Origin: a virus
IMG/VR virus record: IMGVR_UViG_3300041586_000098
Span: 1-64,000 of that record
Reading direction: 5' to 3' (one strand)
Length of the DNA stretch: 64,000 nt
Shown one piece after another: positions 7,754-44,939 of this stretch. Position 1 is the first letter of the stretch. The number at the start of each line of letters is the position of its first letter. The notes under the pieces are model-generated. The model was not told the origin of the DNA. It ran no database searches and saw nothing but the letters and a program-made list of their open reading frames with translations. The position numbers and the translations under genes are program-made.

Positions 7754-8605
7754 AATTGGAAAGTCATTTATAAGAACTTAATAGATAAAGCAATACTAGA
7801 AAATAGAATTAGAAGTACTGAAATATACTATGAAAATCATCATATTATTCCAAAACACATGGGTGGTGATAATTTAGAAGATAATTTAGTACTTTTAACC
7901 TTCAGGGAACACATACTCGCCCATTATTTATTATGGAGAATTTACGGATGTGAAGGAGATAAATTAATGTATTCTCTTAGAAATCTTCAAACAGAAGAAG
8001 CCCAAAGACTAAGAGTTAAATTAGCAGTCGAGGCTAACCGAAACGGTGGTAAAGGATTTAGACTATGGGACGGTGATAAAAATCCAATGAAAAACCCCGA
8101 GAAAGTTAAACAAATGATTAAAACAAAAAAGGAAAAATACAATGGCCATGTAATTTCTGATGCAGCAATGGAAAAATGGAAAAATGGAGTTACTAATCAT
8201 CTACGGGAAATGGCAAAAGATCCAGGAATCCAAGCAAAACGTTCTAAAACTATAAAGGAAATTAATGCAACATTAACTCATGTTGAATTCGCGTTAAAAT
8301 ATAATAATGCAGGAGAGAACAATGGGAATTATGGATGGATTAAAGGATTTTATGAAGTAATTAGTCCAGATGGAAATATTACAAAATATGAAAGTCAAGA
8401 GTCTATTATAGAGGAGTTAAATATATCTCAATCGTTTTTAGTTAGAAATAGAAATAAAGAAGTATGTTACACAAAACCAAAAAAAAATGCAGGTAAATGG
8501 AATGGTTGGACATTTAATTATTTTAAATTACCATGTCCAACTACTGGTAAAATACAAAAAGAACACAAATCACATAAAATTCTAGAAAAAAACAAAACAA
8601 CATGA
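7751..8605 (+). mobile_element. Free-standing HNH homing endonuclease between nrdB and nrdA
   Basis: ENHHIIPKHMGG..NLVLLT.REH..AH.LL; NPM and GENNGNYG NUMOD-like repeats. Confidence 0.85.
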
Positions 8606-9666
8606 ATTACGAGAAAAATTACTGGCTTAATAATGACAGTAGAACATTCCTCTCTCGCGGCTATATTAAGGAAACACCTGAGCAACGAATTAAGGATATA
8701 TCTAACAATGCAGAAAAGATACTAAAAATTGATGGATTTGCAAAGAAGTTTGAGGAGTATATGAACTTAGGTTTTTATAGTTTATCAACACCTGTTTGGA
8801 TTAATTTCGGAAAAGACAAAGGTCTTCCTGTTAGCTGCTATGGAAGTAATGTAGATGATAACTTAGATAGTATATTAAATGCAAGTAGAGAAATAGGAAT
8901 GATGTCAAAATACGGAGGAGGAACTTCAGCTTTTTTAGGAAACATCAGAGAAAGAGGAGCTACTATTTCCACAGGAGGAACAGCAGACGGACCTGTTCAT
9001 TATGCCAGAATGTATGATACAACTGTTGATGTATGTAAACAATCAGAGGCAAGAAGAGGTGCGTGTGCAGTATGGTTGCCAGTAGAACATAAAGATATCT
9101 TAGAATTTTTAGACATTGGAACTGATGGAAATCCTATTCAAAATTTACAATACGGAGTCACTGTAACTGATAATTGGATATCAGAAATGAAAGAAGGAGA
9201 TACTCAAAAACGTAAAATATGGGCAAAGATTATTCAACGACGTAATGAGTTTGGTTTTCCTTACATTATGTTTAAGGATAATAGTAATAACAATTCCCCT
9301 TATAAGGAATTAGGCCTTGACATTACTGCCTCAAACTTATGCGTAGCACCTTGGACTGAAGTTAGTGTAAAAGTAAATGGCGTTGAAAAAACGATGCCAA
9401 TTATAATGTTAGATTGTTTATTTCAATATAATCTATATACAACACTAGAAGTTAAATCATTTAACATAGAAACTTCTGAGATTGAATATAAAAAAGTGAT
9501 AGATAGTGCAATGACTTCTAAAAAAGCAAAAGTTATGAAAATAACAGATGAAGCTACTGGAAAATCAATAACATGTACACTGGATCATAAAGTATATACT
9601 TCGAATAGAGGATATATTATGGCAAAAAATCTAAGAGAAGATGACGTATTAGTTATTAATTCTTAA
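8602..9666 (+). CDS. nrdA: RNR alpha subunit N-part plus split intein IntN (108 aa, from 9340)
   Basis: STPVW, SCY, GGG, RRGA motifs; ASNL|CVAP junction; block B TCTLDH. Confidence 0.92.
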   Translation: MNYEKNYWLNNDSRTFLSRGYIKETPEQRIKDISNNAEKILKIDGFAKKFEEYMNLGFYSLSTPVWINFGKDKGLPVSCYGSNVDDNLDSILNASREIGMMSKYGGGTSAFLGNIRERGATISTGGTADGPVHYARMYDTTVDVCKQSEARRGACAVWLPVEHKDILEFLDIGTDGNPIQNLQYGVTVTDNWISEMKEGDTQKRKIWAKIIQRRNEFGFPYIMFKDNSNNNSPYKELGLDITASNLCVAPWTEVSVKVNGVEKTMPIIMLDCLFQYNLYTTLEVKSFNIETSEIEYKKVIDSAMTSKKAKVMKITDEATGKSITCTLDHKVYTSNRGYIMAKNLREDDVLVINS

Positions 9667-9680
9667 AGTTTTATGTTCTG

Positions 9681-9738
9681 AGATAAAGTTGCAAAATTAT
9701 TTAAATATATATTAAAATAAAAGTAACTTTATCTTATG
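9681..9738 (+). promoter_or_regulatory. Hairpin abutting the endonuclease start, with a late promoter-like AATATATAT in the loop
   Basis: agataaagtt 9681-9690 pairs with aactttatct 9725-9734; ATG at 9736. Confidence 0.65.
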
Positions 9739-10680
9739 AACTATGAACGAATATACAATAACTTATGTGAATTATGTAAAACAACTGATGTTAAAGATCG
9801 ATTAAGTAATAGGAATGCCAATGATGAAAGGCTTAGTGCAGACTATATTTATACTGAAAAACATCATATAGTACCTAAGCATATTGGAGGTGATGACTTA
9901 GAATCTAATCTAGTTGTTATGTTACCTGAAGAACACTATATGGCACATTTATTAAGATTTAAAGCTTATAATAATAGAAAAGATTTTCTAGCAATTAGAT
10001 TCATGGTTAACGGATATGTTTATAAGAAAAAAGTATCTAGTGCATTAAGTTCCAAATTAAAGAATAAGTTGGTTGCATCATTCAAACAGAATATATCAAT
10101 GTTTAGAAAGCAAAATACATGGCATAGTATTAAAGGTGTAAACAACATATCAGAAGCAAGAAAGGGTACAATGCCTGTTGTAGATTCTGAAACGCTTAAA
10201 ATGATAGGTTCTGTTGATGTAAATCATCCAAATGTTTTATCTGGAAAATGGAGACACCATTCAACTGGTAAGATATCAGTAATATGTAAAACATCAGGTG
10301 TTAAGAAATACATAACAGTGAATGAATATAGGGATAATTATGACGAATATCATGCAAACATCGGCGACGCTAAAGGTGAAAAGAATTCAAGATTTAGTGG
10401 ATTTACTGACGAAGAGCTTGTTAATATTGTATCTGAATTTTCAGTTGAAATGAACTTAGGATTTTTATTACCATATAGAATGGTGTCGACTTACTATAGA
10501 AAAATTAAAAAGTATGAAAAATTACCAAAATCATTTAGCTCGTTTAGATTTAATGGATTAGGTAGTAAAGAATTACATAGATTAGCATCTGAAAAAACAG
10601 GATTAGTTCTTAATGTATATTACAATAATAGTCCAAAAATAAGAAAAGAAATTAAAAACAAAAATATAACAATATGTTAA
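9736..10680 (+). mobile_element. HNH homing endonuclease between the nrdA halves
   Basis: EKHHIVPKHIGG..NLVVM.PEEHYMAH.L. Confidence 0.85.
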
Positions 10681-11660
10681 AAATACAATATTTAGAAGAA
10701 GAAATACCAGTCTTCGATATTACAGTAGAAGATAACCACAACTTCTACGGGGACGATATATTAGTCCACAATTGCAGTGAAATTCAGCTTCCAACTGATT
10801 CTTTTAATTCGTTTGTATGTTGTTTAGGTTCTATTAATCTTTTACATTGGGATGATATTAAAAAAACAGATGCTATCGAAACATATGTATTGTTCTTAAA
10901 TGCAGTTATGGATGAATTTATTAAGAAGTCATTTAAAATGCCAGGTATGTCAAGGGCACATCGATTTGCCGAACAACATAGAGCATTAGGTCTAGGGGTT
11001 CTTGGCTATCATTCACTATTCCAGTCAAAATTAATAACATTTGACTCTTTACAATCAAAGGCATTAAACCATGATATATTTTCAACTTTAAAGGAAAGAA
11101 GTGATGCGGCATCCCGATGGTTACATGATGAAAAAGGTTATCGATCACTAAGAGATGGATATGCAAATACAACATTAGTTGCGATTGCACCAACAAAGAG
11201 TAGTTCATTTATTTTAGGTCAAGTTTCAATGGGAATAGAACCTATTAAATCTAATTATTTTATTAAAGATTTAGCAAAGTCAAAAACAATATACAAAAAT
11301 CCATTTCTTATTGATGAATTAACTAAGTATAACTTAAATACTCCTGAAGTATGGGAAGGAATTCTCAAAAGAGATGGAAGTGTTCAGCACTTAGATTTTC
11401 CAACAAAAGAAGTTTTTAAATCTTTTGTTGAAATTACACCAAAGGAAATAGTTTTACAAGCAGCTCAGAGACAAAAATTTATAGATCAGTCACAATCATT
11501 AAATTTAATGATTCATCCTAGCGTTCCAGCAAAGGACATTAATAAATTGTATTTATATGCGCATGAAGAGGGAATCAAAACACTTTACTACCAATTTAGT
11601 CAAGGTTCAGCTCAATCATTTGCTAGAGATATTTTAGACTGTGCGAGTTGTGAAGCGTAA
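10674..11660 (+). CDS. nrdA: Split intein IntC (33 aa) plus RNR alpha subunit C-part
   Basis: VFDITVEDNHNF..ILVHN|CSEI; CCLGSIN, APTKSSS, DQSQS, KTLYY and C-terminal CASCE. Confidence 0.92.
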   Translation: MLKIQYLEEEIPVFDITVEDNHNFYGDDILVHNCSEIQLPTDSFNSFVCCLGSINLLHWDDIKKTDAIETYVLFLNAVMDEFIKKSFKMPGMSRAHRFAEQHRALGLGVLGYHSLFQSKLITFDSLQSKALNHDIFSTLKERSDAASRWLHDEKGYRSLRDGYANTTLVAIAPTKSSSFILGQVSMGIEPIKSNYFIKDLAKSKTIYKNPFLIDELTKYNLNTPEVWEGILKRDGSVQHLDFPTKEVFKSFVEITPKEIVLQAAQRQKFIDQSQSLNLMIHPSVPAKDINKLYLYAHEEGIKTLYYQFSQGSAQSFARDILDCASCEA

Positions 11661-11716
11661 AGAAACGGCAGCTTGAAATATAGTTGCATTTTAGGACCGG
11701 GTTAGTTCACGGAAAG

Positions 11717-11749
11717 TAAAGCAGGGAATTCGCTACTCCCTGCTTTTTT
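11717..11749 (+). terminator. Intrinsic terminator
   Basis: aaagcaggga...tccctgcttt followed by a T-run. Confidence 0.75.
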
Positions 11750-11790
11750 ACATATATACATATGATATATAAAGAAAACAGAAAACAATT

Positions 11791-12147
11791 ATGAAATACA
11801 TTAAATTATTTGAACAATTCACATCAACTACTAAAATAAATGAGGCTGGCGATGTTTCTGTGGATAAAATCACTTCACCGGCTGAAAAAAAAGCATTAAA
11901 GTCTGCTTTTGAAGAAGTTGTAACAGGAATCGACAAACTAACATTTAAAAAGAACGGTACAATCGAAGGTCGTCGAGGGTATTTCTATCGACATGGAAGT
12001 TCGCCAGAATCTGTCGCAAAAATATTACAAAGTAGTCTGCGATCTAAAAATATTGAAATTGAAATTGTAAACTCATATGATGATTACAGGTCATGGCCTA
12101 AAGATAGTAATTTTGTAGTAGTATTTAAAATAATTTCAGTATCATAG
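11791..12147 (+). CDS. Putative internal head protein (MKYIKLFEQF tag)
   Basis: N-terminal tag, KINE| cleavage-like site, late promoter at 11764. Confidence 0.55.
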   Translation: MKYIKLFEQFTSTTKINEAGDVSVDKITSPAEKKALKSAFEEVVTGIDKLTFKKNGTIEGRRGYFYRHGSSPESVAKILQSSLRSKNIEIEIVNSYDDYRSWPKDSNFVVVFKIISVS

Positions 12148-12232
12148 TGAAACTAATTTAGTTGATAAAGATTTTACTAAAAATAATTCCTTTCCCTGTG
12201 ATAGTATCAAGGGACCGACTCGAAAGAGTTTT

Positions 12233-12259
12233 AACCTGCTAGAAATAGCAGGTTTTTTT
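12233..12259 (+). terminator. Intrinsic terminator
   Basis: aacctgcta gaaa tagcaggtt followed by a T-run. Confidence 0.75.
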
Positions 12260-12262
12260 ATG

Positions 12263-12291
12263 TGAAACAAAACGCTAATTATGTTTATAAT
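12263..12291 (+). promoter_or_regulatory. Putative middle promoter TGAAAC-N17-TATAAT
   Basis: Repeated motif. Confidence 0.7.
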
Positions 12292-12322
12292 ACTTAAATA
12301 ATATTATTTATAAATAGACAAC

Positions 12323-13087
12323 ATGAAAATTAGCATTGAAAAAGTAGATCAAAACAATTTTATTGGTTTTGTTAATAGGTTAAAGGTTATTGATACCTTT
12401 ATTTATTTTAAAATTAAAGACGGAGTAATTCAGGCTTCGGCTTATTTACCACAAAGAGATGCGGTAAAGCATCATAGGTTACCTATCGGTCAAGTCTTTC
12501 AATTAGAAGAAGATGCAATTGACAAGGTTAACAATAATAAGGAACTAAAAATTGCATTTTTTGATGCAAATAGATTAACTGATGCATTTAAGCAATTTGA
12601 ATTCGGCAACATACAGGCAGAAATAGAATTTGTTGAAAATGAAGAAGATTTTGTAGCAACTGAATTTCGTATTTTTAATAATGAATTAGAAATAACATTA
12701 TCATGTTCAGAACCATCCCTTGGATATAAAGATCTAACTGATTCACAGATTGCATCAATCTTTAACGTAGATGATGCTAAATATATATTCGACATGGATT
12801 ACACGGCAACATCAAAGGTTCGTTCACTGTTTGGATTAGACAAAGAAGAAACCTTTACAATTACCACAAGTAAGGCAGGTGTTAGAATGAAAGGTAAGAA
12901 TTATAATTATTTAGTAACAGAGGAATTTAAAGGATCTCCACAAAAGGATGTTACCCTATTTAAAAAATATTTAAATCTATTAGATAAAGAAGATTATACT
13001 GCAAATGTATTAGAAAACCGCGTTGTTTTAAGATCAAAGGATTCAGAAACTCTTTTAACAATTGCAACCTGCCAAACAGCTGAATAG
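12323..13087 (+). CDS. Probable sliding clamp (gp45-like)
   Basis: 254 aa, acidic, beta-rich pattern, adjacent to the PolB subunit; no diagnostic motif. Confidence 0.5.
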   Translation: MKISIEKVDQNNFIGFVNRLKVIDTFIYFKIKDGVIQASAYLPQRDAVKHHRLPIGQVFQLEEDAIDKVNNNKELKIAFFDANRLTDAFKQFEFGNIQAEIEFVENEEDFVATEFRIFNNELEITLSCSEPSLGYKDLTDSQIASIFNVDDAKYIFDMDYTATSKVRSLFGLDKEETFTITTSKAGVRMKGKNYNYLVTEEFKGSPQKDVTLFKKYLNLLDKEDYTANVLENRVVLRSKDSETLLTIATCQTAE

Positions 13088-13089
13088 AT

Positions 13090-14286
13090 ATGACAATAGA
13101 TGAATTAATACTAAAACCGGAAGAAGATCTGACACAGAGTGAGATCAAAATATTGGTTGAACATTATTCAATGATGTCAGCTAAATATACAGCATACGAA
13201 CAGGCAGTTAAGGTAATGCTTAACTCAATATATGGTGCATTTGGAAATAAATGGTTTCACTTTTTTAACATAGACATTGCTGAATCTATTACACTACAGG
13301 GTCAATCCGCCATTTTATACTCAGAAAAAATTCTTAATAAGTATTTTCATGAATTTTGGCTTAAAGATAAGCAAGTGCATTCTCATTTTAATATTTCTAT
13401 TAAGAATAAACTAGTAAGACCATCTGTTGTTTATATTGACACCGATTCGGCTTATGTTCAATTCGAAGAAATGTATGAATCTATTGAGTGGAATGATGAT
13501 TATATGTCAATAGATAAGTTTATTATGGAATTATATAACTTTAGACTTAAGGATTACATTTTTAAGTGTATGGAAAAGTATTCAGAAGCAACAAATACCG
13601 AAAATTTTCTTGTATTTGAATTAGAAACAATAGCATATTCAGGAATATGGTTAGCTAAGAAAAAATATCTTCAAAATATAGCATGGGAAGACAGGCTTGA
13701 CATTAATGATAGATATCCTTCACTTAAAAAAATAAAAACAATAGGATTCGATACTATTCAAAGTTCAACACCTGCAATTGCAAGGAAGCATTTAACTGAA
13801 GCTCTTAAATTGATTCTTTCAGAAAAGCCAACTGCATCTTTACTAAAAAGATTAGTAGATTATTTAAAACAATGTAAAAAAGAATTTCAGCTTGCAGATA
13901 TAGATGAAATTTGCTTCAACAAAAGAACAAATAACATCGATAAGTATATTCTAGATGATACGACTGAATTCCAGTATGGCTTAAAATGCCCATCTAATGT
14001 CAAGGCGGCAGGTTTTTATAATTTTCTAATGAATAACAATCCAAAATATAAAAATAAATATAAGATGATTGGCAATGGAGAAAAGCTTAGACTATACCAT
14101 TGTAAACACTCTATTTGTGAAATATTTGCATATCAACCAAGTGCACATCCGTATGAAATTGCACCACCAGTGGATTATGAACTACAGTTTGAAAAAAGTG
14201 TAATTGATCCATTAAACAGAGTTCTTTCAGCGGTAGGATTACATACACTAAACAGAAATTTAATTTATTCAACATCATTATTTTAA
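13090..14286 (+). CDS. 43B: Family B DNA polymerase, C-terminal subunit
   Basis: KVMLNSIYG (motif B), YIDTDS (motif C), AKKKY, C-terminal SLF clamp-binding-like tail. Confidence 0.9.
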   Translation: MTIDELILKPEEDLTQSEIKILVEHYSMMSAKYTAYEQAVKVMLNSIYGAFGNKWFHFFNIDIAESITLQGQSAILYSEKILNKYFHEFWLKDKQVHSHFNISIKNKLVRPSVVYIDTDSAYVQFEEMYESIEWNDDYMSIDKFIMELYNFRLKDYIFKCMEKYSEATNTENFLVFELETIAYSGIWLAKKKYLQNIAWEDRLDINDRYPSLKKIKTIGFDTIQSSTPAIARKHLTEALKLILSEKPTASLLKRLVDYLKQCKKEFQLADIDEICFNKRTNNIDKYILDDTTEFQYGLKCPSNVKAAGFYNFLMNNNPKYKNKYKMIGNGEKLRLYHCKHSICEIFAYQPSAHPYEIAPPVDYELQFEKSVIDPLNRVLSAVGLHTLNRNLIYSTSLF

Positions 14287-14288
14287 AC

Positions 14289-14453
14289 ATGGAAATAGAC
14301 AGCAAAAATTTAACAGAAGAACAATACGAGATAGTAAAAAAATATCAAAGTATTACTAAAAAACTTGAAAGTCTTCAAACTAAAATGCAGGCGATACAAG
14401 ATGAGGCACAATCACTCATGACAGAGCTTGAAGAATTAAGAATAAAATATTAG
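14289..14453 (+). CDS. Small coiled-coil protein (54 aa)
   Basis: ATG 2 nt after the polB stop; MEIDSKNLTEEQYEIVKKYQ... Confidence 0.45.
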   Translation: MEIDSKNLTEEQYEIVKKYQSITKKLESLQTKMQAIQDEAQSLMTELEELRIKY

Positions 14454-14469
14454 AAAATAAAGAAAATAT

Positions 14470-15426
14470 ATGGCAAAAAATAAATTTACATTCGATGACT
14501 TAAACGCAGAATTAGCAGGATTAAACCCCTTAGGTTCTGTTATGGACCAATCAAATTTTTCTGAAGTAACAGAATGGATTCACACTGGAAATTATCATTT
14601 AAACGCATGTCTTTCTGGTTCGGTATGGGGAGGATGGCCTAATAACCGTTCTTGTTCAATAGCAGGACCATCTGGTACTGGAAAAACCTTTCTTACATTA
14701 AATTCAGTTCGAGAAGCAATTAACATGGGATATTATGTTATTTATTATGATTCAGAAGCTGCAGTAGATAAAGACCAAATGAAAAAGTTTGGTATTGATA
14801 TTAGTAAAGTAAATTATCAGCCTGTAAATACTGTACAGGCGTTTAGGACTTCAATCACTACTATTACTCAAAAAATGCAAGAGGTAAAAAGAAAAGGTGG
14901 AGAAGTACAAAAAATCATGATTATTCTTGATTCAGCAGGTAACCTTGCGACTGCAAAGGAAATTGATGATGCAACTAGTGGAAGTGAAAAGGCAGATATG
15001 ACTAGATCTAAGATTTTAAAATCTATTTTTAGAATCATAATGACTCCGCTTGCTGATTTAAAAATTCCATTTTTGTTTACTAATCATACTTATCAAACAC
15101 AAGACTTTATTTCAAGACAAGTTGCAGGTGGAGGTTGTTTAGTTCCAGGATCTAAAGTGAGAATGTTCGATAACACGCTAAAGAACATAGAAGATATAGT
15201 AGAAGGTGATTCAGTTCTTACATTAAATGGAGGTATGGAAATAGAAAACACATGGACGTTTGAAAAGAAAACATACCGAATAGAATTTGAAGATAATACG
15301 ATCATAGAATGTTCTGAAGATCATAGATTTTTTACAGGTAATGTTGAAGACGATCCATTAGATGACAATAATTGGATATTAGCAAGAGATTTAGTAAAAA
15401 ACAATGAAGTGTCTAGATATATATAA
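14470..15426 (+). CDS. uvsX: RecA-like recombinase N-part plus split intein IntN (96 aa, from 15136)
   Basis: GPSGTGKT, YYDSE, ILDS, FTNHTY; AGGG|CLVPG junction; block B CSEDH. Confidence 0.92.
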   Translation: MAKNKFTFDDLNAELAGLNPLGSVMDQSNFSEVTEWIHTGNYHLNACLSGSVWGGWPNNRSCSIAGPSGTGKTFLTLNSVREAINMGYYVIYYDSEAAVDKDQMKKFGIDISKVNYQPVNTVQAFRTSITTITQKMQEVKRKGGEVQKIMIILDSAGNLATAKEIDDATSGSEKADMTRSKILKSIFRIIMTPLADLKIPFLFTNHTYQTQDFISRQVAGGGCLVPGSKVRMFDNTLKNIEDIVEGDSVLTLNGGMEIENTWTFEKKTYRIEFEDNTIIECSEDHRFFTGNVEDDPLDDNNWILARDLVKNNEVSRYI

Positions 15427-15480
15427 CAGGCGGTGGTTAACAGCCACCTATTATCTAACAAAAAATTGAAACTACTAAAA

Positions 15481-16473
15481 ATGCCAGTACTTAAGAAATA
15501 TATTAATCCAACATATGATGAATTTAAGAAACTTTTAAATACTCATTATAATGACATGAATATCAATAACGAAGAACATTTTTTAGAGATGTTTAGTTTC
15601 GTTTATTCTAATGAAATAAAAGGAGTATGTGGATTTAAATTAGAATGTCAAAAATTTTTTAAACAGAAAAGGAATGGTAAAGCAGTTTCTAAATTAAGCA
15701 CATCATATTGGAATTCCAGGGGATATGATAATGAATACGCTACCTTAAAAATAAGTGAATTACAAAGAAAAAACAGTAATGTATGTAATTCACATTGGAC
15801 AGATAAAGGGTATAATCAGATTGAAGCAACTTTAATGGTAGCTAATGAACAATCTAGAAGATCCAACTTGCGATATACTAAATATGATAAACATGAAATT
15901 AGTAGACAGTCAGTATGGTCTATCGAATATTGGAAAAACATAGGTTTTTCTGAAGAAGAAGCAAAATACGAGGCACATAAAAGGAATTATGGTTGCAGAG
16001 AATTCTGGTCTAGTGAAAGTGAATACGATACTATTAAAGCAATAATATCTAAAAAACAAAGTAACTTTATAAAAAATAATCCAGAAAAATTTGCATCTTT
16101 TTTCGGAAGCGTGTCTAAGGAGGAAGTTGTATTTTTCAATAATATCGTAAAATCTATTGATAATATAAAACATACTGAATTTATAGTTAACATACAGAAA
16201 TCTGAAGAGTTGAATCAAGGTATAATAAAATATGATGGCTATTTTAAAGACGAGGATTCATTAATTCTTATAGAATATGATGGGTTATATTGGCACAATC
16301 AAATATACGATGAAATAAAGGACAGAATATGTCTAGAATTTAGAAATGATATTACTGGAATTATTAGAGTAAGTGACAATTCATACAAGAATAATACAAA
16401 AACAATAAAATTAATAAAAGATGCAATTAAACAAATTAAAAATAAAGAGTGTAACCGAGTTAAAATCTACTAA
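15481..16473 (+). mobile_element. Vsr-like (EDxHD-type) endonuclease between the uvsX halves; alternative GTG start at 15433
   Basis: YW...GY/GF repeats; YDG...IEYDGLYWH. Confidence 0.75.
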
Positions 16474-16993
16474 AGTACATGATTTAACAGTAAGAGATGT
16501 TCAACATTATATTACTGAAAATGGAGTAATACATCACAATACAGGTCCGGAGTATGCTGCTTCTATTGTTCTTATGTTAACTAAAGCACAATTAAAGGAT
16601 GGTACCGAAAAAGTTGGTATTATTGTAACGGCAAAACCTGATAAAAATAGATTTGCTAAGCCACATCCTATTAAGTTTCATTTAGATTTTACCAAAGGTA
16701 TGAATCCGTATGTTGGCCTAGAGCAATACGCAACATGGGATATCTGTGGAATCACAAGAGGTTCTATAGAAAAAGGAGTTAAAACACCAAAGGCAACAGC
16801 ACGCGGATGGATCTGCCAGCACCTAGATGAAGTAGTTACAAACTCTGAATTTTTTAGTGAAAAGGTATTTACAAAGGAGATATTAGAAAAAATAAATATT
16901 CATATTAAGCCCCTTTTTAACTATAATACCGAAAGCGATAATATAGATAACGAAATCGGAGCTTTACTTGATGAAAATTTAACAAACGAATAA
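16421..16993 (+). CDS. uvsX: Split intein IntC (40 aa) plus UvsX C-part
   Basis: VHDLTV..QHYITENGVIHHN|TGPEYAAS; KNRF; GMNPYVGL. Confidence 0.9.
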   Translation: MQLNKLKIKSVTELKSTKVHDLTVRDVQHYITENGVIHHNTGPEYAASIVLMLTKAQLKDGTEKVGIIVTAKPDKNRFAKPHPIKFHLDFTKGMNPYVGLEQYATWDICGITRGSIEKGVKTPKATARGWICQHLDEVVTNSEFFSEKVFTKEILEKINIHIKPLFNYNTESDNIDNEIGALLDENLTNE

Positions 16994-16994
16994 A

Positions 16995-17306
16995 ATGGAA
17001 GTTAGTCTTATGTCATATAATGAAGATAAACTACCTATAAAATATATACTAGGCATACAAGGGGAACTTGAAAACTTCCCTGATGCCTTTGATATAATTT
17101 ACATTTATTTATCTGAAACAATAAACCGTCCAAGTAGACCGATGCATAATTTTACAAAACCATCATTGATTAAATATCATGCTAAAGGAAATATATTTAA
17201 TGTCGAAAAGGGACTGACTCAAGCAATATCTCTTGGACTAATAGAGCAAACTAAATTTGAAGAAGGAAAGGAATCGTATACAATAATAATAAATCCATTT
17301 CAATAA
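16995..17306 (+). CDS. Hypothetical protein
   Basis: Operonic 103-aa ORF. Confidence 0.6.
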   Translation: MEVSLMSYNEDKLPIKYILGIQGELENFPDAFDIIYIYLSETINRPSRPMHNFTKPSLIKYHAKGNIFNVEKGLTQAISLGLIEQTKFEEGKESYTIIINPFQ

Positions 17307-17341
17307 GATACATTGTTCAACATTTACATCTGTTCAACCAC

Positions 17342-17383
17342 AATGAACATTCAAATATAATGAACATTCAGATATAATGAAAC
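17342..17383 (+). repeat. 17-bp tandem repeat aatgaacattcaRatat x2, running into the promoter -35 TGAAAC
   Basis: Read directly. Confidence 0.7.
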
Positions 17384-17406
17384 TTAGTCCTATAATACAT
17401 TATAAT
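17378..17406 (+). promoter_or_regulatory. Putative middle promoter TGAAAC-N17-TATAAT
   Basis: Repeated motif. Confidence 0.7.
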
Positions 17407-17422
17407 TAAAAACAAATAACAA

Positions 17423-18736
17423 ATGAAATTCGGACAAGATTTTGAAAAAATATTCTTTCAGTTAGCTTTAGCAAAACCAAAATACCTAGAAAAAATACAT
17501 AAAGGGTTCTATACATCAGATGAAATAGACACCATGCATTTTTTAGCAACTAAATTCTACGAAAAATTCCATGAATCACCAAAGGCAGAACAAATGAAAA
17601 TTTTAGTTCAAAGTCCTAAATTCAAAGGTAAGGTAGAAGAATCAATAATTGAATTAGTATATAAGACAGATCTAACTCAATATGATGAAGAGTGGTTAGT
17701 ATCAACGGCTGAAGCATGGATTAAATGGAGAACATTCGATACAACTTTAATCGATACCATTGAATATATTAAGACAACTGAAGTTACTCCTGAAAATGCA
17801 GATCAAATTATATCTAAAGTAAAAAGCTTAATTAATGACAGGAACTCTATTGTATTTAATTCAGATATTGGATTAGATTTCTTTAATGTTGACGATCACT
17901 ATCAAGAAGGAAGAGTAAAGGTTTCAACTGGATATAATTTCTTAGATAGACTGCTTACTGGTGGATATGATAAAGATGGATCTTTAGTAGTTTATGTCGG
18001 TGAGCAAAATATTGGAAAATCGATTTATCTAGCAAATGACGCTGCAAACTTTGTTAAAATGGGAGTTAACACTGCATTTGTTTCAGCAGAGATGGCAGCA
18101 CATAAGGTTCTTAAAAGAATAGGAGCAAACTTGTTAACCATTCCAATGAGTGAATATGATATTAAAGCACAAAATAAAGATTTAATCAAAAGAAAGTTAG
18201 AAAACGTAGGAAATGGATTAACACCACCAGGTCAATTATTTGTTAAACAATTTCCAACATCACAAGCAACTGTACCTGATATTGAAGCATACTTAAAGCA
18301 AATTGAAGAAGAAAGAAAAATAAAATTAAGCTGTGTAGTCATTGACTATATTAATATTTTAGCGAATTATAGAAATCCAAATTCTGAAAATATGTACTTA
18401 AAAATTAAGCAAATTGCAGAAGATTTAAGAGCTATGGGAGTTAGAAACGGCTGGCTAATAGTAACTGCAACCCAGATCAACAGAAACAATTATAATTCTA
18501 GTGATATTGGAATGGGTGATGTTGCAGAATCCGCAGGACTTTCTCATACAGCAGATTTAATGCTTGGAATTATTCAAGACGATATGATGCGTGCAAGTAG
18601 CGAATATTGGCTTAAGGTTTTAAAGATTAGAGATGGTGAAGGTAAAGGAGTAAAATGTAGATTAAATATAAACTATCAATATATGCGTCTTACTGAAACC
18701 GAAGATGTTACAAATTCAAATATACATAATTTATAA
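17423..18736 (+). CDS. 41: DnaB-like replicative helicase
   Basis: GEQNIGKS, SAEM, IDYINI, TATQINR, AESAGL. Confidence 0.92.
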   Translation: MKFGQDFEKIFFQLALAKPKYLEKIHKGFYTSDEIDTMHFLATKFYEKFHESPKAEQMKILVQSPKFKGKVEESIIELVYKTDLTQYDEEWLVSTAEAWIKWRTFDTTLIDTIEYIKTTEVTPENADQIISKVKSLINDRNSIVFNSDIGLDFFNVDDHYQEGRVKVSTGYNFLDRLLTGGYDKDGSLVVYVGEQNIGKSIYLANDAANFVKMGVNTAFVSAEMAAHKVLKRIGANLLTIPMSEYDIKAQNKDLIKRKLENVGNGLTPPGQLFVKQFPTSQATVPDIEAYLKQIEEERKIKLSCVVIDYINILANYRNPNSENMYLKIKQIAEDLRAMGVRNGWLIVTATQINRNNYNSSDIGMGDVAESAGLSHTADLMLGIIQDDMMRASSEYWLKVLKIRDGEGKGVKCRLNINYQYMRLTETEDVTNSNIHNL

Positions 18737-18738
18737 AT

Positions 18739-19179
18739 ATGAAAGAGAGAGATAAAATATTCGATAATACATTTGAAGAAAGCAGTTTTGAAATAGATCC
18801 TACATTTTCATTTAATATAGCCCCTAGTCATACCGATAATCGAGACGAGGAAGACAAAATAGAAAATAAAATAATTATTGCTAAAATTCACGAACTAATA
18901 GAATCTTCTAGGTTTAAGCATTTTAATAATATTAATGAATTTAATCAAACGATTAAATTAAAAAAAATAGAAATAAATGAAATTTATGAGTATATTTCAG
19001 ATGAGCTTAGACCTAATCATTCAATAATTGAAATATATTCAGAAACATGTGATTATTTTAATGTAAATCCAACAAAATTCTATCAGTCACTTGGCAATAA
19101 ATTTAAAGAAGAATTAATAGAGGTACTAGATAGAAAAACAAATGTACTAAAGAAAAAGAATATAAATAGATTATTCTAA
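18739..19179 (+). CDS. Hypothetical protein, possibly a gp33-like late coactivator
   Basis: Helical C-terminal half loosely resembles gp33; weak evidence. Confidence 0.35.
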   Translation: MKERDKIFDNTFEESSFEIDPTFSFNIAPSHTDNRDEEDKIENKIIIAKIHELIESSRFKHFNNINEFNQTIKLKKIEINEIYEYISDELRPNHSIIEIYSETCDYFNVNPTKFYQSLGNKFKEELIEVLDRKTNVLKKKNINRLF

Positions 19180-41349: not shown

Positions 41350-41904
41350 ATGGCAATTGAAGATACAAGTTATGATAATAAATGGATTCCTAATGCAGAA
41401 TCAGAAAAAGATGCTCAAAAATTAGTTTGGTCAACTAAAATAATTAATGATCTATTAGTTGCACTTGACAAGGGATATCGACCTCAAGTCAGTATGCCAT
41501 TTTACGAAGGAAAACAATTTTTAAGAAAAGGAAACATAGTATTTGAATACACAGATGAAGAAATAGAAGAACTTGCAAAATGTGCAAAAGATATTGTCTA
41601 TTTTGCAGAGAGGTATGCGGTTGTTATGACCGACAATGGAATTCAACAGGTTACACTTAGAAAATATCAAAAAGAATTACTAAGAGATTTTCAGCATAAT
41701 AGATTTAATATCGTGTTAGCCGCACGTCAAATGGGAAAGTGTCTTGTACATAGCACCAGAATCGATGTTAAGGATCCTCATGGTATTTCTAAGACGATAA
41801 CTATAGGAGAACTGTTTTATACTATACTTCAAAAACAAAGGCCCTTAAAGGTAACTGAATGGATTAAGTGGAAGCTGTGGACTTTATATACATGGATTGA
41901 CTAA
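41350..41904 (+). CDS. 17: Terminase large subunit N-part plus atypical IntN (54 aa)
   Basis: KCAKDIVYFAE, LRKYQ, ARQMGK|CLVHST. Confidence 0.9.
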   Translation: MAIEDTSYDNKWIPNAESEKDAQKLVWSTKIINDLLVALDKGYRPQVSMPFYEGKQFLRKGNIVFEYTDEEIEELAKCAKDIVYFAERYAVVMTDNGIQQVTLRKYQKELLRDFQHNRFNIVLAARQMGKCLVHSTRIDVKDPHGISKTITIGELFYTILQKQRPLKVTEWIKWKLWTLYTWID

Positions 41905-41983
41905 TATTCATTCTTTACGATATCTGTCAACTTACAAGAAACATTTAGATATATAATTATATAATATATAAATAGATATAGTT

Positions 41984-43045
41984 ATGAAAGATAAAGAATG
42001 TAAGGAATGTAATAATGTTTATCAATCAATGAGTAATAATTCTAAATTTTGTTCATTTGATTGTAGGGATTTGTTTAAATTTAAAGTAGAACAAATTGCC
42101 ATGTTCAATGGTAATGAAGGATATGATTATGTAGTAGACCAATGGAATGGATATGCTACTACTAGAATTTACGGCCATTGGTTTACACAACATCATCCAG
42201 ACAGAACAACCGAAGAATATAGAATTGAGTTTCCAAATGCAAAACTACAATGTGATAAGATAAGTGCAAAGAATGGTCAATTCATGAAAGAAGAGAAGCA
42301 TAGAGAAGCACAGCGACAAAGAATGATAGGATCAAATAATCCAAATCATACATCAAAAACTACAGTTGAACAAAGAAAGTCAAAGAGTCCATTTTCAAAA
42401 GATTTTGTTAATTATAAATCAGAAGAAGATAGAAAGAAATTTATTGACTCTATTGACTATGGTTCTATAAAAAAGAGTTCAGATATTGAGTGGTGGCTAA
42501 AAAAATGCAATGGAAATATAGAAGAAGCGGAGCGACTTTATGTTGAAAGACAAACTACATTTACTTTGAATAAATGTATTTTAAAACATGGAAAATCAAA
42601 GGGAACTGAAGTGTATAACAATAGACAAGAAAAATGGTTGAAGTCTCTATATGCCAACTTTGAAAAATATGGAGATGGAAGATCTCCTCAGAGTAAATGG
42701 GTTAATAATATTAAAATCATTTTAAAAGATAATGGAATTGTAATTCCCGATAAAGAAAAATGGATAAGAGAAATTAATAGCGTTAAATCATATTCATATG
42801 ATTTAACTGTTAACAAAAAAATAATAGAGTTTAACGGAGATTATTGGCATGCCAATCCTGCTATATATGAAATGGACTGGTTTAACAAAACAAAAAAGAT
42901 GAAAGCCCATGTGTTATGGGAATATGACGCAAATAAAAGAAAGTTAGCCGAATCCCATGGATATGAAGTTTTAACAATATGGGAGTCTGATTATAATAAA
43001 GATCCAAATGGAACAATTCAGTTGTGTCTAGAATTTCTAAGATAA
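41984..43045 (+). mobile_element. Vsr-like (EDxHD-type) endonuclease with N-terminal Zn ribbon between the terminase halves
   Basis: CKEC..FCSFDC; IEFNGDYWHANP; GYEVLTIWE; late promoter at 41948. Confidence 0.82.
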
Positions 43046-43055
43046 ATATTACAAT

Positions 43056-44939
43056 ATGAAATCAATCTTAAAATCAATAATAATACGTTCAATTCAATTT
43101 ATAGAAAAAATTGAAACGAAAAATGAATATCTGCCAGAAGATGATTTCACCGACAAGATACAGGAAACAATTAACCTTAAAGGATATAAAGTCCTAACTG
43201 ATTCTGGATATCAACCAATGCCGAATATTCATCTTACAAAACCATATACTATATGGGAAATTAAGACACATTCGGATCGAAAAATGCAAGGCGCGGATAC
43301 CCATATTCTATTTGACGAAAACCTAAATGAGGTTTTTATTAAGGATTTAAAAATAGGAGACCTACTAATGACAGTAAGCGGGCCCGAAATGGTAACCGAA
43401 ATTACTACATTTAAATCAAAGGTTCAAATGTATGATGCAACAGTAGATCACATTGACCATCGATATTATACAAATGGATTCCTTTCACATAATACAGTTA
43501 CAGCTTCGATTTTTAATGCATGGTACTTAGTTTTTAATTATGACAAAACTACATTACTTCTTGCAAACAAATCAGAATCAACAAAGGAAATTATAGATAA
43601 GGCTAAGGTTGTTCTTGAAAATCTTCCATTCTACATGAAGCCAGGTATCATCAAGTATGATGTAATGAATGTCCGTGCGGATAATGGATGCCGTCTCGTA
43701 GGACAATCAACTACTGCAAAATCAGGTATTGGATTCACTATACATAATTTATATCTTGATGAGTTTGCTCACGTCCATCCTACTATTGTTGACGCCTTTT
43801 ATGAAAACGTATATCCTACTCTTTCTGCATCTAAAATTTCTAGAATTAATATAACATCCACACCTAATGGATTTAATAAGTTTTATGAGATATTTGCGGA
43901 TGCCGAACAGGGTAACAATGAATATAAAGCAACTCGAATTGATTGGTGGCAACATCCTGACCGGGACGATGAATGGTATAAGAGAGAACTTGGAAACCTA
44001 GGTTCTGAGGACGCGTTTAATAGACAGTATGGTAACGAATTTACAAGTTCATCGAGTTTATTACTAAGTCCTGGTACAATGAAAAGTATTAGAAAAAATG
44101 CAAAGAAATTTGTATATCATGACTTAGAGGATTTTGAAAACATACATATAGATGTTGAAGGTTTTCTTGGATTTGATCCTAGATTTGACATAGAGGCCGC
44201 CGCCGAATCAGATAGATATTATTTATTTTCAGTAGATATTGCCGAAGGAAACGGAGGAGACTATTCTGTTGTTAATATTTTTGAAGTTGAACCGATGTCA
44301 AACAAAGATATTGAAAACTATATAAGCCCAGGCGCAATGTATGATTTTTTTAAGATAAACCAAATTGCTGTTTTTAGAAGTAATGAACATCCTATTGAAG
44401 ATTTCGCGAAAATTTTATATACACTAGCAATTGATGTGTTTAATCCTGAGAACGTTAAGATGATTATAGAGTACAATACATATGGAAGTATACTACTACA
44501 ATACTTATCGACAGTGTTTCCTGGAAGGAATGATTTTGAAGATGAAATGGTTCTTAGATTTAAACATAGACATGATTCAAAGGTTCCGAAGGCCGGATTA
44601 AAGCTTAAATCAGATAATAAATCAGTGTTTTGTCAAAATTTTAAAAAGCTTATAGAAATTAATAGAATTAAAATAAATGAAATAACAACAGTACAGGAGG
44701 CAAGTTTATTTGGAACGGTAAAGAATGGTAGTTATGCGGCACAAATGGGAAAGGACGATACTATAATGACATGTATTACTGCAACTGAATTTTTCGGAAC
44801 AACTGATTATGCCGATTATGTTGAGGAATTATTAGATGTAATAGATCCTGAAATACATGACTTAATGGAAGAAGTATTATATAAAGATAATGGAGGTGGA
44901 GATTCTTCACTTCAATTCGACATTTATGATTTGCTTTAA
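43056..44939 (+). CDS. 17: Split intein IntC (146 aa) plus terminase large subunit C-part
   Basis: ADTH block B; MYDATV..YYTNGFLSHN|TVTAS; LANK, YLDEFAH, TSTPNG, VDIAEG.GGDYS, DD. Confidence 0.92.
   Translation: MKSILKSIIIRSIQFIEKIETKNEYLPEDDFTDKIQETINLKGYKVLTDSGYQPMPNIHLTKPYTIWEIKTHSDRKMQGADTHILFDENLNEVFIKDLKIGDLLMTVSGPEMVTEITTFKSKVQMYDATVDHIDHRYYTNGFLSHNTVTASIFNAWYLVFNYDKTTLLLANKSESTKEIIDKAKVVLENLPFYMKPGIIKYDVMNVRADNGCRLVGQSTTAKSGIGFTIHNLYLDEFAHVHPTIVDAFYENVYPTLSASKISRINITSTPNGFNKFYEIFADAEQGNNEYKATRIDWWQHPDRDDEWYKRELGNLGSEDAFNRQYGNEFTSSSSLLLSPGTMKSIRKNAKKFVYHDLEDFENIHIDVEGFLGFDPRFDIEAAAESDRYYLFSVDIAEGNGGDYSVVNIFEVEPMSNKDIENYISPGAMYDFFKINQIAVFRSNEHPIEDFAKILYTLAIDVFNPENVKMIIEYNTYGSILLQYLSTVFPGRNDFEDEMVLRFKHRHDSKVPKAGLKLKSDNKSVFCQNFKKLIEINRIKINEITTVQEASLFGTVKNGSYAAQMGKDDTIMTCITATEFFGTTDYADYVEELLDVIDPEIHDLMEEVLYKDNGGGDSSLQFDIYDLL

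Follow-up and report, generated by a model that had tools for sequence, protein, structure and literature searches.

How are four phage genes, nrdA, uvsX, a gp46-like gene, and terL, expressed when each is divided into two reading frames with a third lying between them? The window, the whole 64,000-nt stretch analysed (positions 1 to 64,000 of IMG/VR record IMGVR_UViG_3300041586_000098), is a piece of the genome, probably a large one, of an uncultured, T4-like phage. In each gene, an N-extein fused to the N-terminal half of an intein (IntN) runs to a stop codon, an endonuclease ORF follows, and the C-terminal intein half (IntC) then leads into the C-extein (Table 1). The preliminary description, which reported this fractured layout with a split intein and a free-standing endonuclease in every gene, was upheld by the ORFs (all 12 found on the + strand at the coordinates it gave), by Hint motifs, and by uninterrupted alleles. 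Its junction strings were also found (ITASNL/CSEIQL, QVAGGG/TGPEYA, GKNGEGK/STIANA, and ARQMGK/TVTASI), and the exteins meet precisely at catalytic motifs, just before the thiyl-radical Cys in NrdA and within the Walker A GK/S or GK/T in gp46 and TerL; the +1 residues that it listed as Cys, Ser, and Thr were seen as Cys (nrdA), Thr (uvsX), Ser (gp46), and Thr (terL).

Table 1. Positions of the pieces of the four fractured genes and of associated features in the window
Feature	Position	Strand	Description
nrdA pieces (N; endonuclease; C)	8602-9666; 9736-10680; 10674-11660	+	
nrdA N-extein	8602-9339	+	246 aa; Ribonuc_red_lgC 130.5 bits; ends ITASNL
nrdA IntN	9340-9666	+	108 aa + stop; canonical split; block B TLDH
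nrdA-cassette endonuclease	9736-10680	+	HNH-like homing endonuclease; 314 aa; phrog_655 "homing endonuclease" E 1.2e-26
nrdA IntC	10674-10772	+	33 aa; ends ILVHN; 7-nt overlap with endonuclease stop
nrdA C-extein	10773-11660	+	295 aa; first residue is the thiyl-radical Cys
uvsX pieces (N; endonuclease; C)	14470-15426; 15433-16473; 16421-16993	+	
uvsX N-extein	14470-15135	+	222 aa; RecA PF00154 46.3 bits; ends QVAGGG
uvsX IntN	15136-15426	+	96 aa + stop; canonical split
uvsX-cassette endonuclease	15433-16473	+	Vsr-like (I-Bth0305I-like); start probably ATG 15481
uvsX IntC	16421-16540	+	40 aa; ends VIHHN; 53-nt overlap with endonuclease 3' end
uvsX C-extein	16541-16993	+	150 aa; begins TGPEYAAS
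gp46-like pieces (N; endonuclease; C)	20299-20508; 20554-21684; 21687-23606	+	
gp46-like (Rad50/SbcC-like) N-extein	20299-20421	+	41 aa; ends in Walker A GKNGEGK
Co-conversion-like tract by gp46 insertion site	20371-20421	+	11 mismatches/51 nt to empty allele
gp46 IntN	20422-20508	+	28 aa + stop; atypical split; no block B
gp46-cassette endonuclease	20554-21684	+	Vsr-like; 376 aa; phrog_22677 E 3.8e-17; PF18741 E 1.5e-3, sub-threshold
Catalytic module common to gp46- and terL-cassette endonucleases	21178-21690	+	79% nt identity over 518 nt to 42545-43059
gp46 IntC	21687-22055	+	123 aa; block B SPDH; terminal SHN
gp46-like C-extein	22056-23606	+	516 aa; +1 Ser first; SbcC_Walker_B match sub-threshold
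terL pieces (N; endonuclease; C)	41350-41904; 41984-43045; 43056-44939	+	
terL N-extein	41350-41739	+	130 aa; Walker A ARQMGK at end; phrog_5989 terminase large subunit E 6.3e-24
terL IntN	41740-41904	+	54 aa + stop; ~33-aa core, 21-aa Trp-rich tail; atypical split
terL-cassette endonuclease	41984-43045	+	Vsr-like; 353 aa; phrog_22677 E 2.6e-14; PF18741 E 1.2e-3, sub-threshold
terL IntC	43056-43493	+	146 aa; hydrophobic helix-like head; block B ADTH; terminal SHN
terL C-extein	43494-44939	+	481 aa; +1 Thr first; Terminase_6N 49.4 bits

For nrdA, Ribonuc_red_lgC also matched the C piece (176.6 bits), the N-extein covers positions 12–261 of the NrdE-prime profile TIGR02510, and the C-extein aligned with PDB 6dqx_A (E 1.7e-103) in an alignment opening with nCSEI versus lCTEI. 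The uvsX C-extein matched phage UvsX structures from residue 40 onward (9gbg_A, E 5.3e-8; 7z3m; 3io5). In the gp46-like gene, SMC/SbcC matches were only sub-threshold (N-extein: AAA_15, AAA_23, and SMC_N, all sub-threshold; sbcc TIGR00618, E 4.7e-5), and the gene lies immediately 3' of an Mre11-like Metallophos gene (19183-20295). The DNA polymerase in the window is also split, but without an intein; the preliminary description mentioned neither this nor the atypical split of two inteins nor the two families of endonucleases (see below).

Among the best 80 IMG/VR loci for each gene, which are the most similar matches and not a random sample, the exteins were joined in frame with zero extra bases in 58 of 80 for nrdA, 72 of 80 for uvsX, 77 of 80 for gp46, and 73 of 80 for terL. 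In these alleles, the first C-extein codon directly follows the last one of the N-extein, and the boundaries are thus exact. The large majority of relatives being uninterrupted, together with degradation of the endonuclease in some carriers (terL in L002, L004, and L005; gp46 in L126), might suggest that a defective or declining phage lineage has been left with inactivated pseudogenes, or that the fractured layout is a mis-assembly. However, the arrangement, which is far beyond chance, recurs in independent IMG/VR contigs (L001, L161-L163, and L241-L243) and in two Logan runs, X2 and X5, on contigs with word depth ~50 and ~6, respectively, and is not an assembly artefact; the exteins of carriers are intact and 99–100% identical to those of non-carriers, and purifying selection acts on the intein halves also in carriers whose endonuclease has decayed. 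We thus consider inactivation or mis-assembly very unlikely.

In profile searches, the intein assignment stood above the curated cut-offs for both halves of nrdA (IntN from Cys247, TIGR01445 intein_Nterm 26.8 bits vs 24.5; IntC, TIGR01443 intein_Cterm 35.5 bits vs 15.6) and fell 0.1–1.5 bits short for uvsX (IntN from Cys223, TIGR01445 23.8 bits vs 24.5; IntC, TIGR01443 14.1 bits vs 15.6) and terL (IntC, TIGR01443 15.5 bits vs 15.6), and no curated intein cut-off was reached by gp46 IntC or by the IntN of gp46 and terL. The Intein_splicing profile gave matches at E 8.7e-6 to 8.1e-4 (uvsX IntC, 5.3e-4; gp46 IntC, 8.1e-4, sub-threshold), and gp46 IntC matched terL IntC by blastp (E 3.9e-11). The split falls at the canonical endonuclease position in the nrdA and uvsX inteins and is atypical in those of gp46 and terL, which have an IntN of 28 and 54 aa, respectively. 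All four keep Cys1, the block-B His, the terminal His-Asn, and the +1 residue, and the catalytic residues were invariant in the alleles compared (five for uvsX, three for terL, three for gp46, and two for nrdA), block B of uvsX IntN being SEDH in all five. Among nine allele pairs, dN/dS of the intein halves was 0.06–0.24, values that are rough because dS (0.7–2.2) is near saturation in most pairs. 

Such conservation bears on the possibility that one or more pairs have lost splicing and that their intein halves only dock the enzyme fragments non-covalently. A precedent is set by the available text of PMC3045599, which proposes fragment assembly without splicing for an Aeromonas phage NrdA split by an endonuclease. 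At its split site, terL has extra segments that look like a module added for interaction and are conserved (alleles L002 and L005 keep the IntN tail RPLKxTEWxKWKLWxLYxWxD), along with Ala where Thr is expected in block B. However, mere docking has no need for Cys1, Asn, or the +1 residue, and no nucleophile or terminal His-Asn has been lost from any of the four inteins or any compared allele despite the divergence at synonymous sites; moreover, gp46 and terL are split within the Walker A loop, which would be unlikely to function without covalent joining and with a 150–200-aa Hint domain wedged into it. Docking alone is thus improbable, and the four pairs are predicted to trans-splice.

In T4-like phages, nrd genes can be interrupted by group I introns that encode homing endonucleases, and the interruptions seen here could likewise be self-splicing introns with endonuclease ORFs, joining the exteins at the RNA level. 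Vsr-like endonucleases occur in group I introns too, according to the available text of Dassa 2009 and the I-Bth0305I paper. However, no Rfam family matched at its gathering score in the whole window, and at E<=1 the two regions 8602-23606 and 41350-44939 gave one chance-level match only (rox2, E 0.29); the endonuclease flanks are in frame with the exteins, encode Hint motifs, and are under purifying selection. RNA-level joining is therefore the least probable of the explanations considered, to the point of being scarcely credible.

The gp46 locus was polymorphic at the exact cassette boundaries. Contig G001 lacks exactly 20422-22055 (IntN, endonuclease, and IntC); its identity is 99.7% upstream of this gap and 98.5% downstream of it, its uninterrupted gene being 99% identical over the C-extein. 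The claim in the preliminary description that all four genes are essential and depend on trans-splicing was thus overstated; this near-identical phage contig comes from the same metagenome type, and the dependence is therefore recent and confined to particular alleles. "Essential" is also too strong a word for the whole set: in T4, neither nrdA nor uvsX is known to be strictly essential. In public metagenome contigs, the empty site was bridged in X7 and X10 and the filled site was found in X2 and X5. The mismatches to the empty allele cluster next to the insertion (Table 1), with none in the preceding 249 nt; four were confirmed in X7 contigs, three of these also in X10 (20371 in X7 only), and two of the four recur in the filled allele of X5. 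G001 has ACA (Thr) as its +1 codon versus AGT (Ser) in the window, and the +1 residue is Thr in 77/77 empty alleles and Ser in 3/3 filled loci and the window. The mismatch tract could in part reflect selection for cleavage resistance instead of co-conversion. Mobility of the cassettes is further supported at nrdA, where the cassette in L241 is 88–93% identical within flanks that are ~100% identical, and by distant carriers, in which the intein halves are better conserved than the exteins (gp46 IntC, 61–66% vs C-extein, 45–46%; uvsX IntC, 82–85% vs C-extein, 42–44%).

The free-standing endonucleases belong to two families, that of nrdA being HNH-like and those of uvsX, gp46, and terL Vsr-like/I-Bth0305I-like. 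The nrdA-cassette enzyme is 41% identical over 85 aa to an HNH-like ORF (7751-8605) and had no Pfam match at E 0.01. Homologues of the uvsX-cassette enzyme begin at the residue equivalent to M17; its AF2 model (29 homologues; pLDDT 89) places residues 210–324 in the catalytic-domain fold of I-Bth0305I (3r3p_A; Z 9.8, rmsd 2.9, 92/97 aligned). The gp46- and terL-cassette enzymes gave tblastn matches to phage genes annotated "VSR endonuclease", and their catalytic modules are 71% identical over 189 aa. A promoter-like octamer, TATAAATA, lies at 41967 by the terL-cassette endonuclease.

We propose that the four genes have very probably been invaded by cassettes of a split intein and a free-standing homing endonuclease. 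Each gene would be translated as two precursors whose intein halves associate, by charge-driven capture in the canonical pairs and, in the atypical pairs, by insertion of the short IntN strand and helix into a near-complete IntC. When the gp46 N piece was modelled in complex with residues 1–173 of the C piece, IntN was predicted to pair with IntC residues 1–12 and 21–27 (at least 82% of contacts common to runs; partner pLDDT at least 65); the ipSAE was 0.79 versus 0.00 for the best control, the mark of the tool being reached by 51/78 solved complexes and 2/108 mismatched pairs, though split-intein complexes have already been solved and the pass may thus reflect likeness, not binding. The rebuilt Hint domain would excise itself and ligate the exteins, restoring the catalytic motifs in NrdA (541 aa), UvsX (372 aa), the gp46-like ATPase (557 aa), and TerL (611 aa). 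Judging from its position and fold, the endonuclease would cut uninterrupted alleles in co-infecting relatives, and repair would copy the entire cassette and a short flanking extein stretch into the cut allele.

The four inteins are mutually only 18–26% identical and the canonical pairs have opposite charge polarity, which argues for orthogonality, as the preliminary description supposed. The two atypically split inteins (three in the lineage) are related, with the common start CLxxxTxID, and the three relatives could cross-react; the available text of Pinto 2020 (PMC7090010) places cross-reaction mostly among atypically split inteins. The fractured-gene layout itself is already known, being described in the available text of Dassa 2009; new here are four fractured genes on one contig, gp46 as a host gene, and the population snapshot, and a sister contig carries a fifth fractured gene. 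Of solved structures, terL IntC resembles CatC, an atypical consensus intein (6dsl_B, "consensus engineered intein CatC", E 1.7e-4), and also matched VidaL (6vgv_A, E 0.02).

The twelve ORFs of the preliminary description were all present in the window, and each of the four genes, nrdA, uvsX, the gp46-like gene for a Rad50/SbcC-like ATPase, and terL, consisted of three co-oriented ORFs encoding the N-extein with the N-terminal intein half (IntN), a free-standing endonuclease, and the C-terminal intein half (IntC) with the C-extein. The splice points were set from sequence, and every piece was placed by tblastn on the 80 best IMG/VR relatives per gene, which are the most similar hits and not a random sample. 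A junction was scored as exact when the first C-extein codon directly followed the last N-extein codon in frame. The earlier claim that joining the exteins restores catalytic motifs exactly was borne out by the relatives' intact alleles, which make up between 58 (nrdA) and 77 (gp46) of the 80 loci and provide the strongest test of the predicted cassette boundaries. In the 16 nrdA loci classed as other, this position is occupied by a contiguous intein of the LAGLIDADG type, unrelated to that of the window. Furthermore, the nrdA C piece from the Cys at +1, the first C-extein residue, onward aligned to RNR alpha-chain structures (6dqx_A, E = 1.7e-103), and the uvsX C-extein aligned with phage UvsX structures. 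Joining of the exteins by RNA splicing, with introns in place of inteins, is very unlikely, as no intron family was matched at the gathering score of Rfam nor, within the two fractured-gene regions, at E ≤ 1.

Table. Fractured genes of the window, lengths of their parts, and state of the site in the 80 best IMG/VR loci per gene
Gene	Position (+ strand)	N-extein (aa)	IntN (aa)	IntC (aa)	C-extein (aa)	Uninterrupted, exact	Same fractured layout	Other	Cut off or unclear
nrdA	8602-11660	246	108	33	295	58	3	16	3
uvsX	14470-16993	222	96	40	150	72	7	0	1
gp46-like	20299-23606	41	28	123	516	77	3	0	0
terL	41350-44939	130	54	146	481	73	4	0	3

All four inteins begin with Cys, which is unchanged across the compared alleles, and contain the block-B His (TLDH, SEDH, SPDH and ADTH, the Thr position being Ser in two and Ala in terL). 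Their C-termini and +1 residues, with a slash marking the splice point, are VHN/C (nrdA), HHN/T (uvsX), SHN/S (gp46) and SHN/T (terL). The catalytic residues were invariant across every compared allele, and dN/dS of the intein halves was 0.06–0.24 in nine allele pairs, a rough estimate because dS was near saturation in most. Docking of the fragments without splicing may apply to individual pairs, though docking alone leaves the invariant nucleophiles unexplained. An origin of the layout as pseudogenes or by mis-assembly is contradicted by its occurrence in independent contigs and by the purifying selection on the halves.

Protein splicing is the preferred reading. The halves were compared with known inteins. 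The nrdA halves scored above the NCBIfam cut-offs (TIGR01445, 26.8 vs 24.5 bits; TIGR01443, 35.5 vs 15.6 bits), and the uvsX halves (23.8 vs 24.5 and 14.1 vs 15.6 bits, respectively) and the terL IntC (15.5 bits vs the TIGR01443 cut-off of 15.6) fell short by 0.1 to 1.5 bits, while the NCBIfam intein N- and C-terminal models did not match the gp46 halves or the terL IntN. Pfam Intein_splicing gave sub-threshold matches to four of the eight separate pieces. The terL IntC matched the solved atypical consensus intein CatC (6dsl_B) with E = 1.7e-4 and VidaL more weakly, and the gp46 IntC was related to the terL IntC (blastp E = 3.9e-11).

Two architectures were distinguished. The nrdA and uvsX inteins have the canonical split, with a long IntN containing block B and a short IntC, whereas in those of gp46 and terL the break follows the first helix, block B is missing from IntN, and blocks B, F and G all lie in IntC. 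The terL IntN comprises a core of ~33 aa followed by a conserved 21-aa Trp-rich tail, and the terL IntC has an additional hydrophobic head of ~30 aa; both are conserved in the related alleles L002 and L005, and such a head was seen in ~8 of 97 representative proteins starting with the atypical IntC type. We infer that these two extensions together make up an extra module for interaction. The sole pair for which a complex was modelled, the N piece of gp46 and residues 1–173 of its C piece, gave an ipSAE of 0.79, compared with 0.00 for the best control, with a partner pLDDT of at least 65 and at least 82% of contacts common to the runs. Of 78 solved complexes, 51 reach the mark applied to such models, as do 2 of 108 mismatched pairs; because structures of split-intein complexes already exist, however, the score may reflect likeness to these and not binding.

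Searching with an atypical-IntC profile yielded 3541 representative clusters with E ≤ 0.001, falling to 978 at 1e-10 and to 61 at 1e-30. By motif search, the IntC was N-terminal in 97 of the best 150 matches and internal in 29, with no motif found in 24, and Pfam was run on the 85 of these 150 with an N-terminal IntC and an extein of at least 100 aa. Terminase_6N was found in the exteins of 45 of the 85, DnaB_C in 10, ClpB-type AAA_2 in 3 and other AAA domains in a few; a gp46-like extein start occurred in 2 of the 150 best matches. Judged from their domain assignments, the Pfam-matched hosts are all P-loop NTPases, in agreement with the clustering of inteins in P-loops described in the available part of Novikova 2016.

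The endonucleases between the halves are of two kinds. The nrdA endonuclease (9736-10680) is HNH-like, matching phrog_655 'homing endonuclease' (E = 1.2e-26) with no Pfam match. Its paralogue, the free-standing ORF 7751-8605, scored 19.0 bits against PF01844, under the cut-off of 21.4. The uvsX, gp46 and terL endonucleases are Vsr-like; those of gp46 and terL match phage genes annotated 'VSR endonuclease', including that of the Aes123-type fractured polB, and the Pfam search of the Vsr-like endonucleases returned PF18741 alone, below threshold. Neither a phmmer search of the gp46 endonuclease against the PDB (0 matches at E ≤ 1) nor a search with the profile from homologue alignment A2, whose only match there was a chance one to ribosomal protein L9, identified a solved relative. 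The uvsX endonuclease had no family match, and none of its 29 homologues had any Pfam domain. Its AF2 model reached a pLDDT of 37.4 from the single sequence and 89 with the 29-homologue alignment, and the C-terminal domain of the model aligned with the catalytic domain of I-Bth0305I (3r3p_A; Z 9.8, rmsd 2.9, 92 of 97 residues aligned), and 3hrl gave an equal Z (9.8; rmsd 2.4, 91 aligned). These clear nuclease-fold matches came solely from the VIA re-alignment, and Foldseek of the model against the PDB returned nothing at E ≤ 0.001 (best E above 0.03). The uvsX endonuclease is thus predicted from the model to have a Vsr-like PD-(D/E)xK catalytic fold.

All three Vsr-like endonucleases contain the motif E..D(G)..WH...D, which occurs as IEYDGLYWH..YDE and IEFNGDYWH..YD and is invariant across homologue alignments A1, A2 and A3; we take this acidic/His motif to be the one named EDxHD. 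In their N-terminal regions, all three also have three or four tandem, helix-rich repeats of ~35 aa with the signature W-x2-(K/R)G-x-S-x-E-E-A, located at 15679-15963, at 20884-21162 and in the N-terminal half of the terL endonuclease. No Pfam family matches the repeats, which possibly constitute a modular DNA-binding array. In hhalign comparisons of the uvsX-type with the gp46/terL-type profiles, the repeat region aligned with 97.3–97.5% probability and the catalytic domains did not align. The last 189 aa of the gp46 and terL endonucleases are 71% identical, while their N-terminal halves differ, and at the DNA level identity is 79% over 518 nt, reaching the IntC start codon. The inteins around them are only 26% identical, so the nuclease module and the inteins have different histories.

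A hairpin (GGTGGTTAACAGCCACC) lies at 15432-15448, directly after the uvsX IntN stop, and a T4-late-promoter-like element (TATAAATA) at 41967-41974, 17 nt ahead of the terL endonuclease start. Both resemble the promoter- and hairpin-like control elements reported upstream of the endonucleases of fractured loci from the GOS set in the available text of Dassa 2009 (PMC2677866). A sigma-70 promoter scan was not above shuffles (110 found vs 96.8 ± 10.6). Beyond the window, two paralogous GIY-YIG-like ORFs at 66853-67536 and 68839-69492 of the same contig share the motif YIYKTTCIIT..FYIGMHS, so the contig is rich in free-standing endonucleases.

Near-identical contigs provided a view of the cassettes at the population level. 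The sister contig G001 is 99.7% identical to the window over 14422-20420 and 98.5% over 22059-29608, and exactly 20422-22055, comprising the gp46 IntN, spacer, endonuclease and IntC, is missing from it. Between the filled and empty alleles, the 249 nt before 20371 are identical, the last 51 nt before the insertion differ at 11 positions, the +1 codon is AGT (Ser) in the filled and ACA (Thr) in the empty allele, and the following 297 nt are identical. Thr is the +1 residue in 77 of 77 empty gp46 alleles, and Ser in the window and in three filled loci. In public sequencing runs labelled salt lake metagenome, the empty gp46 site is spanned by a 31.8-kb contig of run X7 and an 11.9-kb contig of run X10, and the filled allele is present in X2 and X5; two 'empty-type' bases inside the flanking tract of the X5 allele point to a different conversion end point. 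The nrdA cassette of the related locus L241 is 88–93% identical to that of the window between flanks of ~100% identity, a swap of cassette alleles. In distant carriers the intein halves are more conserved than the exteins, and in four loci (L002, L004, L005 and L126) the endonuclease has decayed while the intein halves are intact. Together, these observations fit the homing cycle proposed for fractured genes, and the presence/absence polymorphism, the flanking tract and the nrdA swap fit mobilization of the cassette by its endonuclease, which would act as a homing enzyme. A second presence/absence polymorphism was seen at 7681-8578, which is missing in G001; the free-standing HNH-like endonuclease 7751-8605, between nrdB and nrdA, is present in the window and L241 and not in G001 or the near-identical contig G002. 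Region 11751-12251, containing ORF 11791-12147 (118 aa, without a family match), is likewise missing from G001, with clean flanks.

Sister contig G001 carries a fifth cassette (L321, G001:C1:64270-67644), in which a ClpB-like AAA+ ATPase is fractured in Walker A (GPTGVGK/T) by an IntN of 32 aa and an IntC of 114 aa, with a 96-aa remnant ORF alone at the endonuclease position. Pairwise identity among the four inteins of the window is 18–26%, and the nrdA pair (C-terminal half of IntN +3, IntC −7) and the uvsX pair (−8 and +4, respectively) have opposite charge polarity. On the other hand, the gp46 and terL inteins are related, atypically split and alike in their first strand, and the same holds for the ClpB-like pair, whose IntC is 38% identical to that of terL; cross-reaction is found mostly among atypically split inteins according to the available part of Pinto 2020 (PMC7090010). 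The four pairs may thus plausibly be orthogonal. A broader scenario, which we consider possible yet rather doubtful, is that one atypical-intein clade colonized the Walker-A loops (GK/S or GK/T) of unrelated P-loop NTPase genes in one phage lineage (Rad50-like gp46 and TerL, and the ClpB-like AAA+ gene in the sister contig), that the Vsr-like endonucleases retarget by keeping the catalytic module and swapping the repeat-built N-terminal DNA-binding region, and that cohabiting pairs keep their specificity by means of extra segments, for example the Trp-rich tail and hydrophobic head of the terL pair.

The window covers the initial 64 kb of a virus contig of 73,391 bases, with a GC content of ~30% and nearly every gene on the + strand. 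Its T4-type core comprises NrdB, NrdA, a two-piece family-B DNA polymerase, UvsX, a DnaB-like helicase, Mre11-like and Rad50-like proteins, portal, capsid, clamp loader, TerL and tail sheath. In a capsid protein comparison, the nearest named records were LR756500.1, a 462-kb unannotated uncultured phage (51%), and Lak megaphages (38%), and megablast of 8602-23606 against 50,697 phage records gave zero matches. A near-identical IMG/VR contig of 170 kb has a CheckV completeness of 61%, so the phage genome is probably well over 200 kb. The two pieces of the polymerase, at 5225-6622 and 13090-14286, are 6.5 kb apart and lack intein motifs; the N part runs through the exonuclease and the palm as far as phrog_2062, the C part begins ahead of the KxxxNSxYG motif, and the order polN, nrdB, (nrdA), gp45-like, polC is retained in 37 of 80 nrdA loci, to ~40% identity. 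ORF 28923-30839 (638 aa) contains a duplicated segment of ~45 aa (GAAGIPAEDLKDETKDVTVKTVDADGNVIDS...), and ORF 32535-33713 (392 aa) a periodic tract rich in Ala, Glu, Pro and Lys (AEAEPKAD...); these protein repeats coincide with a local rise in GC to 0.34–0.35 at 30–34 kb.

The window and its sister contig provide four natural split inteins from one genome and a fifth beside them, with two architectures and, in the window, +1 Cys, Thr, Ser and Thr. Since the four presumably work side by side in one infected cell, they form a ready test set for the determinants of split-intein orthogonality, above all among atypical splits, which are prized for semisynthesis and reported to cross-react. Direct population evidence on the proposed joint movement of endonuclease and split intein comes from the nearly isogenic gp46 alleles with and without the cassette, the variable tract beside it and the nrdA swap, and carriers with a decayed endonuclease and intact intein halves represent a later stage of the homing cycle. 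For the phage, dNTP synthesis, recombination and packaging are predicted to depend on a post-translational ligation step. The additions to what was known are the four cassettes on one contig, the Rad50-like host, the HNH-bearing cassette, the extended terL variant and the natural filled/empty allele pair. UvsX may not be a new host, because the VidaL study of Burton et al. from 2020 reportedly lists UvsX-hosted atypical inteins. A search of one literature library for UvsX- or gp46-hosted split inteins or multi-fractured phage genomes found none relevant; the supplementary tables of Dassa 2009 and Novikova 2016 may name further hosts.

The contiguous LAGLIDADG inteins of the 16 nrdA loci (L290, L296, L306 and 13 more) share the insertion point SNL/C with the window, which is the commonest RNR intein site according to the available text of Dassa 2009 (PMC2677866). 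They are in frame and 375–376 aa long with LAGLIDADG-like motifs, or occur as a 239-aa deletion form; unlike the window intein they are cis-splicing, with a nested endonuclease, and end in FN instead of HN, and they have no detectable similarity to the window nrdA IntN. The cultured T4-like phages of the Aes123 type (JN377899 etc.) have a polB gene that is fractured by a split intein and holds a Vsr-like endonuclease between the halves. The catalytic region of this 'VSR endonuclease' is 41% identical to the gp46 endonuclease over ~80 aa. Phage Aes123 is the source of the PolB1 split intein (PMC11923092, available part). Its host protein is a DNA polymerase and its intein is cysteine-less, whereas all four inteins of the window begin with Cys and the polymerase of the window is split without an intein. 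The Vsr-like endonucleases of the window resemble I-Bth0305I in having the catalytic domain at the C-terminus, behind a separate putative DNA-binding region, but I-Bth0305I is intron-encoded in the available description (PMC3239194), whereas these three are free-standing between intein halves and carry three or four N-terminal repeats.

The gp46 and terL inteins share Cys1, the short IntN without block B and the long IntC with blocks B, F and G with AceL-TerL/GOS-TerL, the Cat consensus intein (6dsl) and VidaL (6vgv), and terL also has the SHN/T terminus of the AceL-TerL/GOS-TerL type. Their split after the first helix corresponds to the S2 site in the available text of PMC13014065. The gp46 IntN (28 aa) lies within the 15–30 aa reported for atypical IntN in the accessible parts of PMC11923092 and PMC13014065, whereas the terL IntN (54 aa) is longer. 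The gp46 member differs from the AceL/GOS-TerL type in its Rad50/SbcC-like ATPase host and its +1 Ser. LR756500.1 (189362-199987) also carries a fractured terL, broken where the gene of the window is and accompanied by a Vsr-like endonuclease; in it the IntC ends in SSQ/T and not SHN/T and an uninterrupted second terL-like ORF (270 aa) lies just downstream.

The fractured genes are real and well delimited and, as the preliminary description had stated, belong to a known kind, that described in Dassa 2009 (PMC2677866), of which the following holds for the available text. The GOS loci have the same layout on one strand (extein-IntN, short spacer, free-standing endonuclease, IntC-extein) and phage-like hosts, with NrdA broken directly ahead of the thiyl-radical Cys and a gp17-like terminase with an unusually long IntC (122 aa), as in terL of the window. 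Vsr-like endonucleases occur in about half of these loci, and the endonucleases are GIY-YIG or Vsr-like, in contrast to the HNH-like one in nrdA of the window. Spacers are 27–51 nt in the GOS loci and 69, 6 (54 if the start is 15481), 45 and 79 nt here. UvsX is merely a neighbouring gene in that set, and gp46/Rad50-like proteins are outside its eight host types. Furthermore, the 27 GOS loci, from short read assemblies, have one fractured gene each and are mostly without one or both ends, whereas four fractured genes are found here on one 73-kb contig and a fifth in the sister contig.
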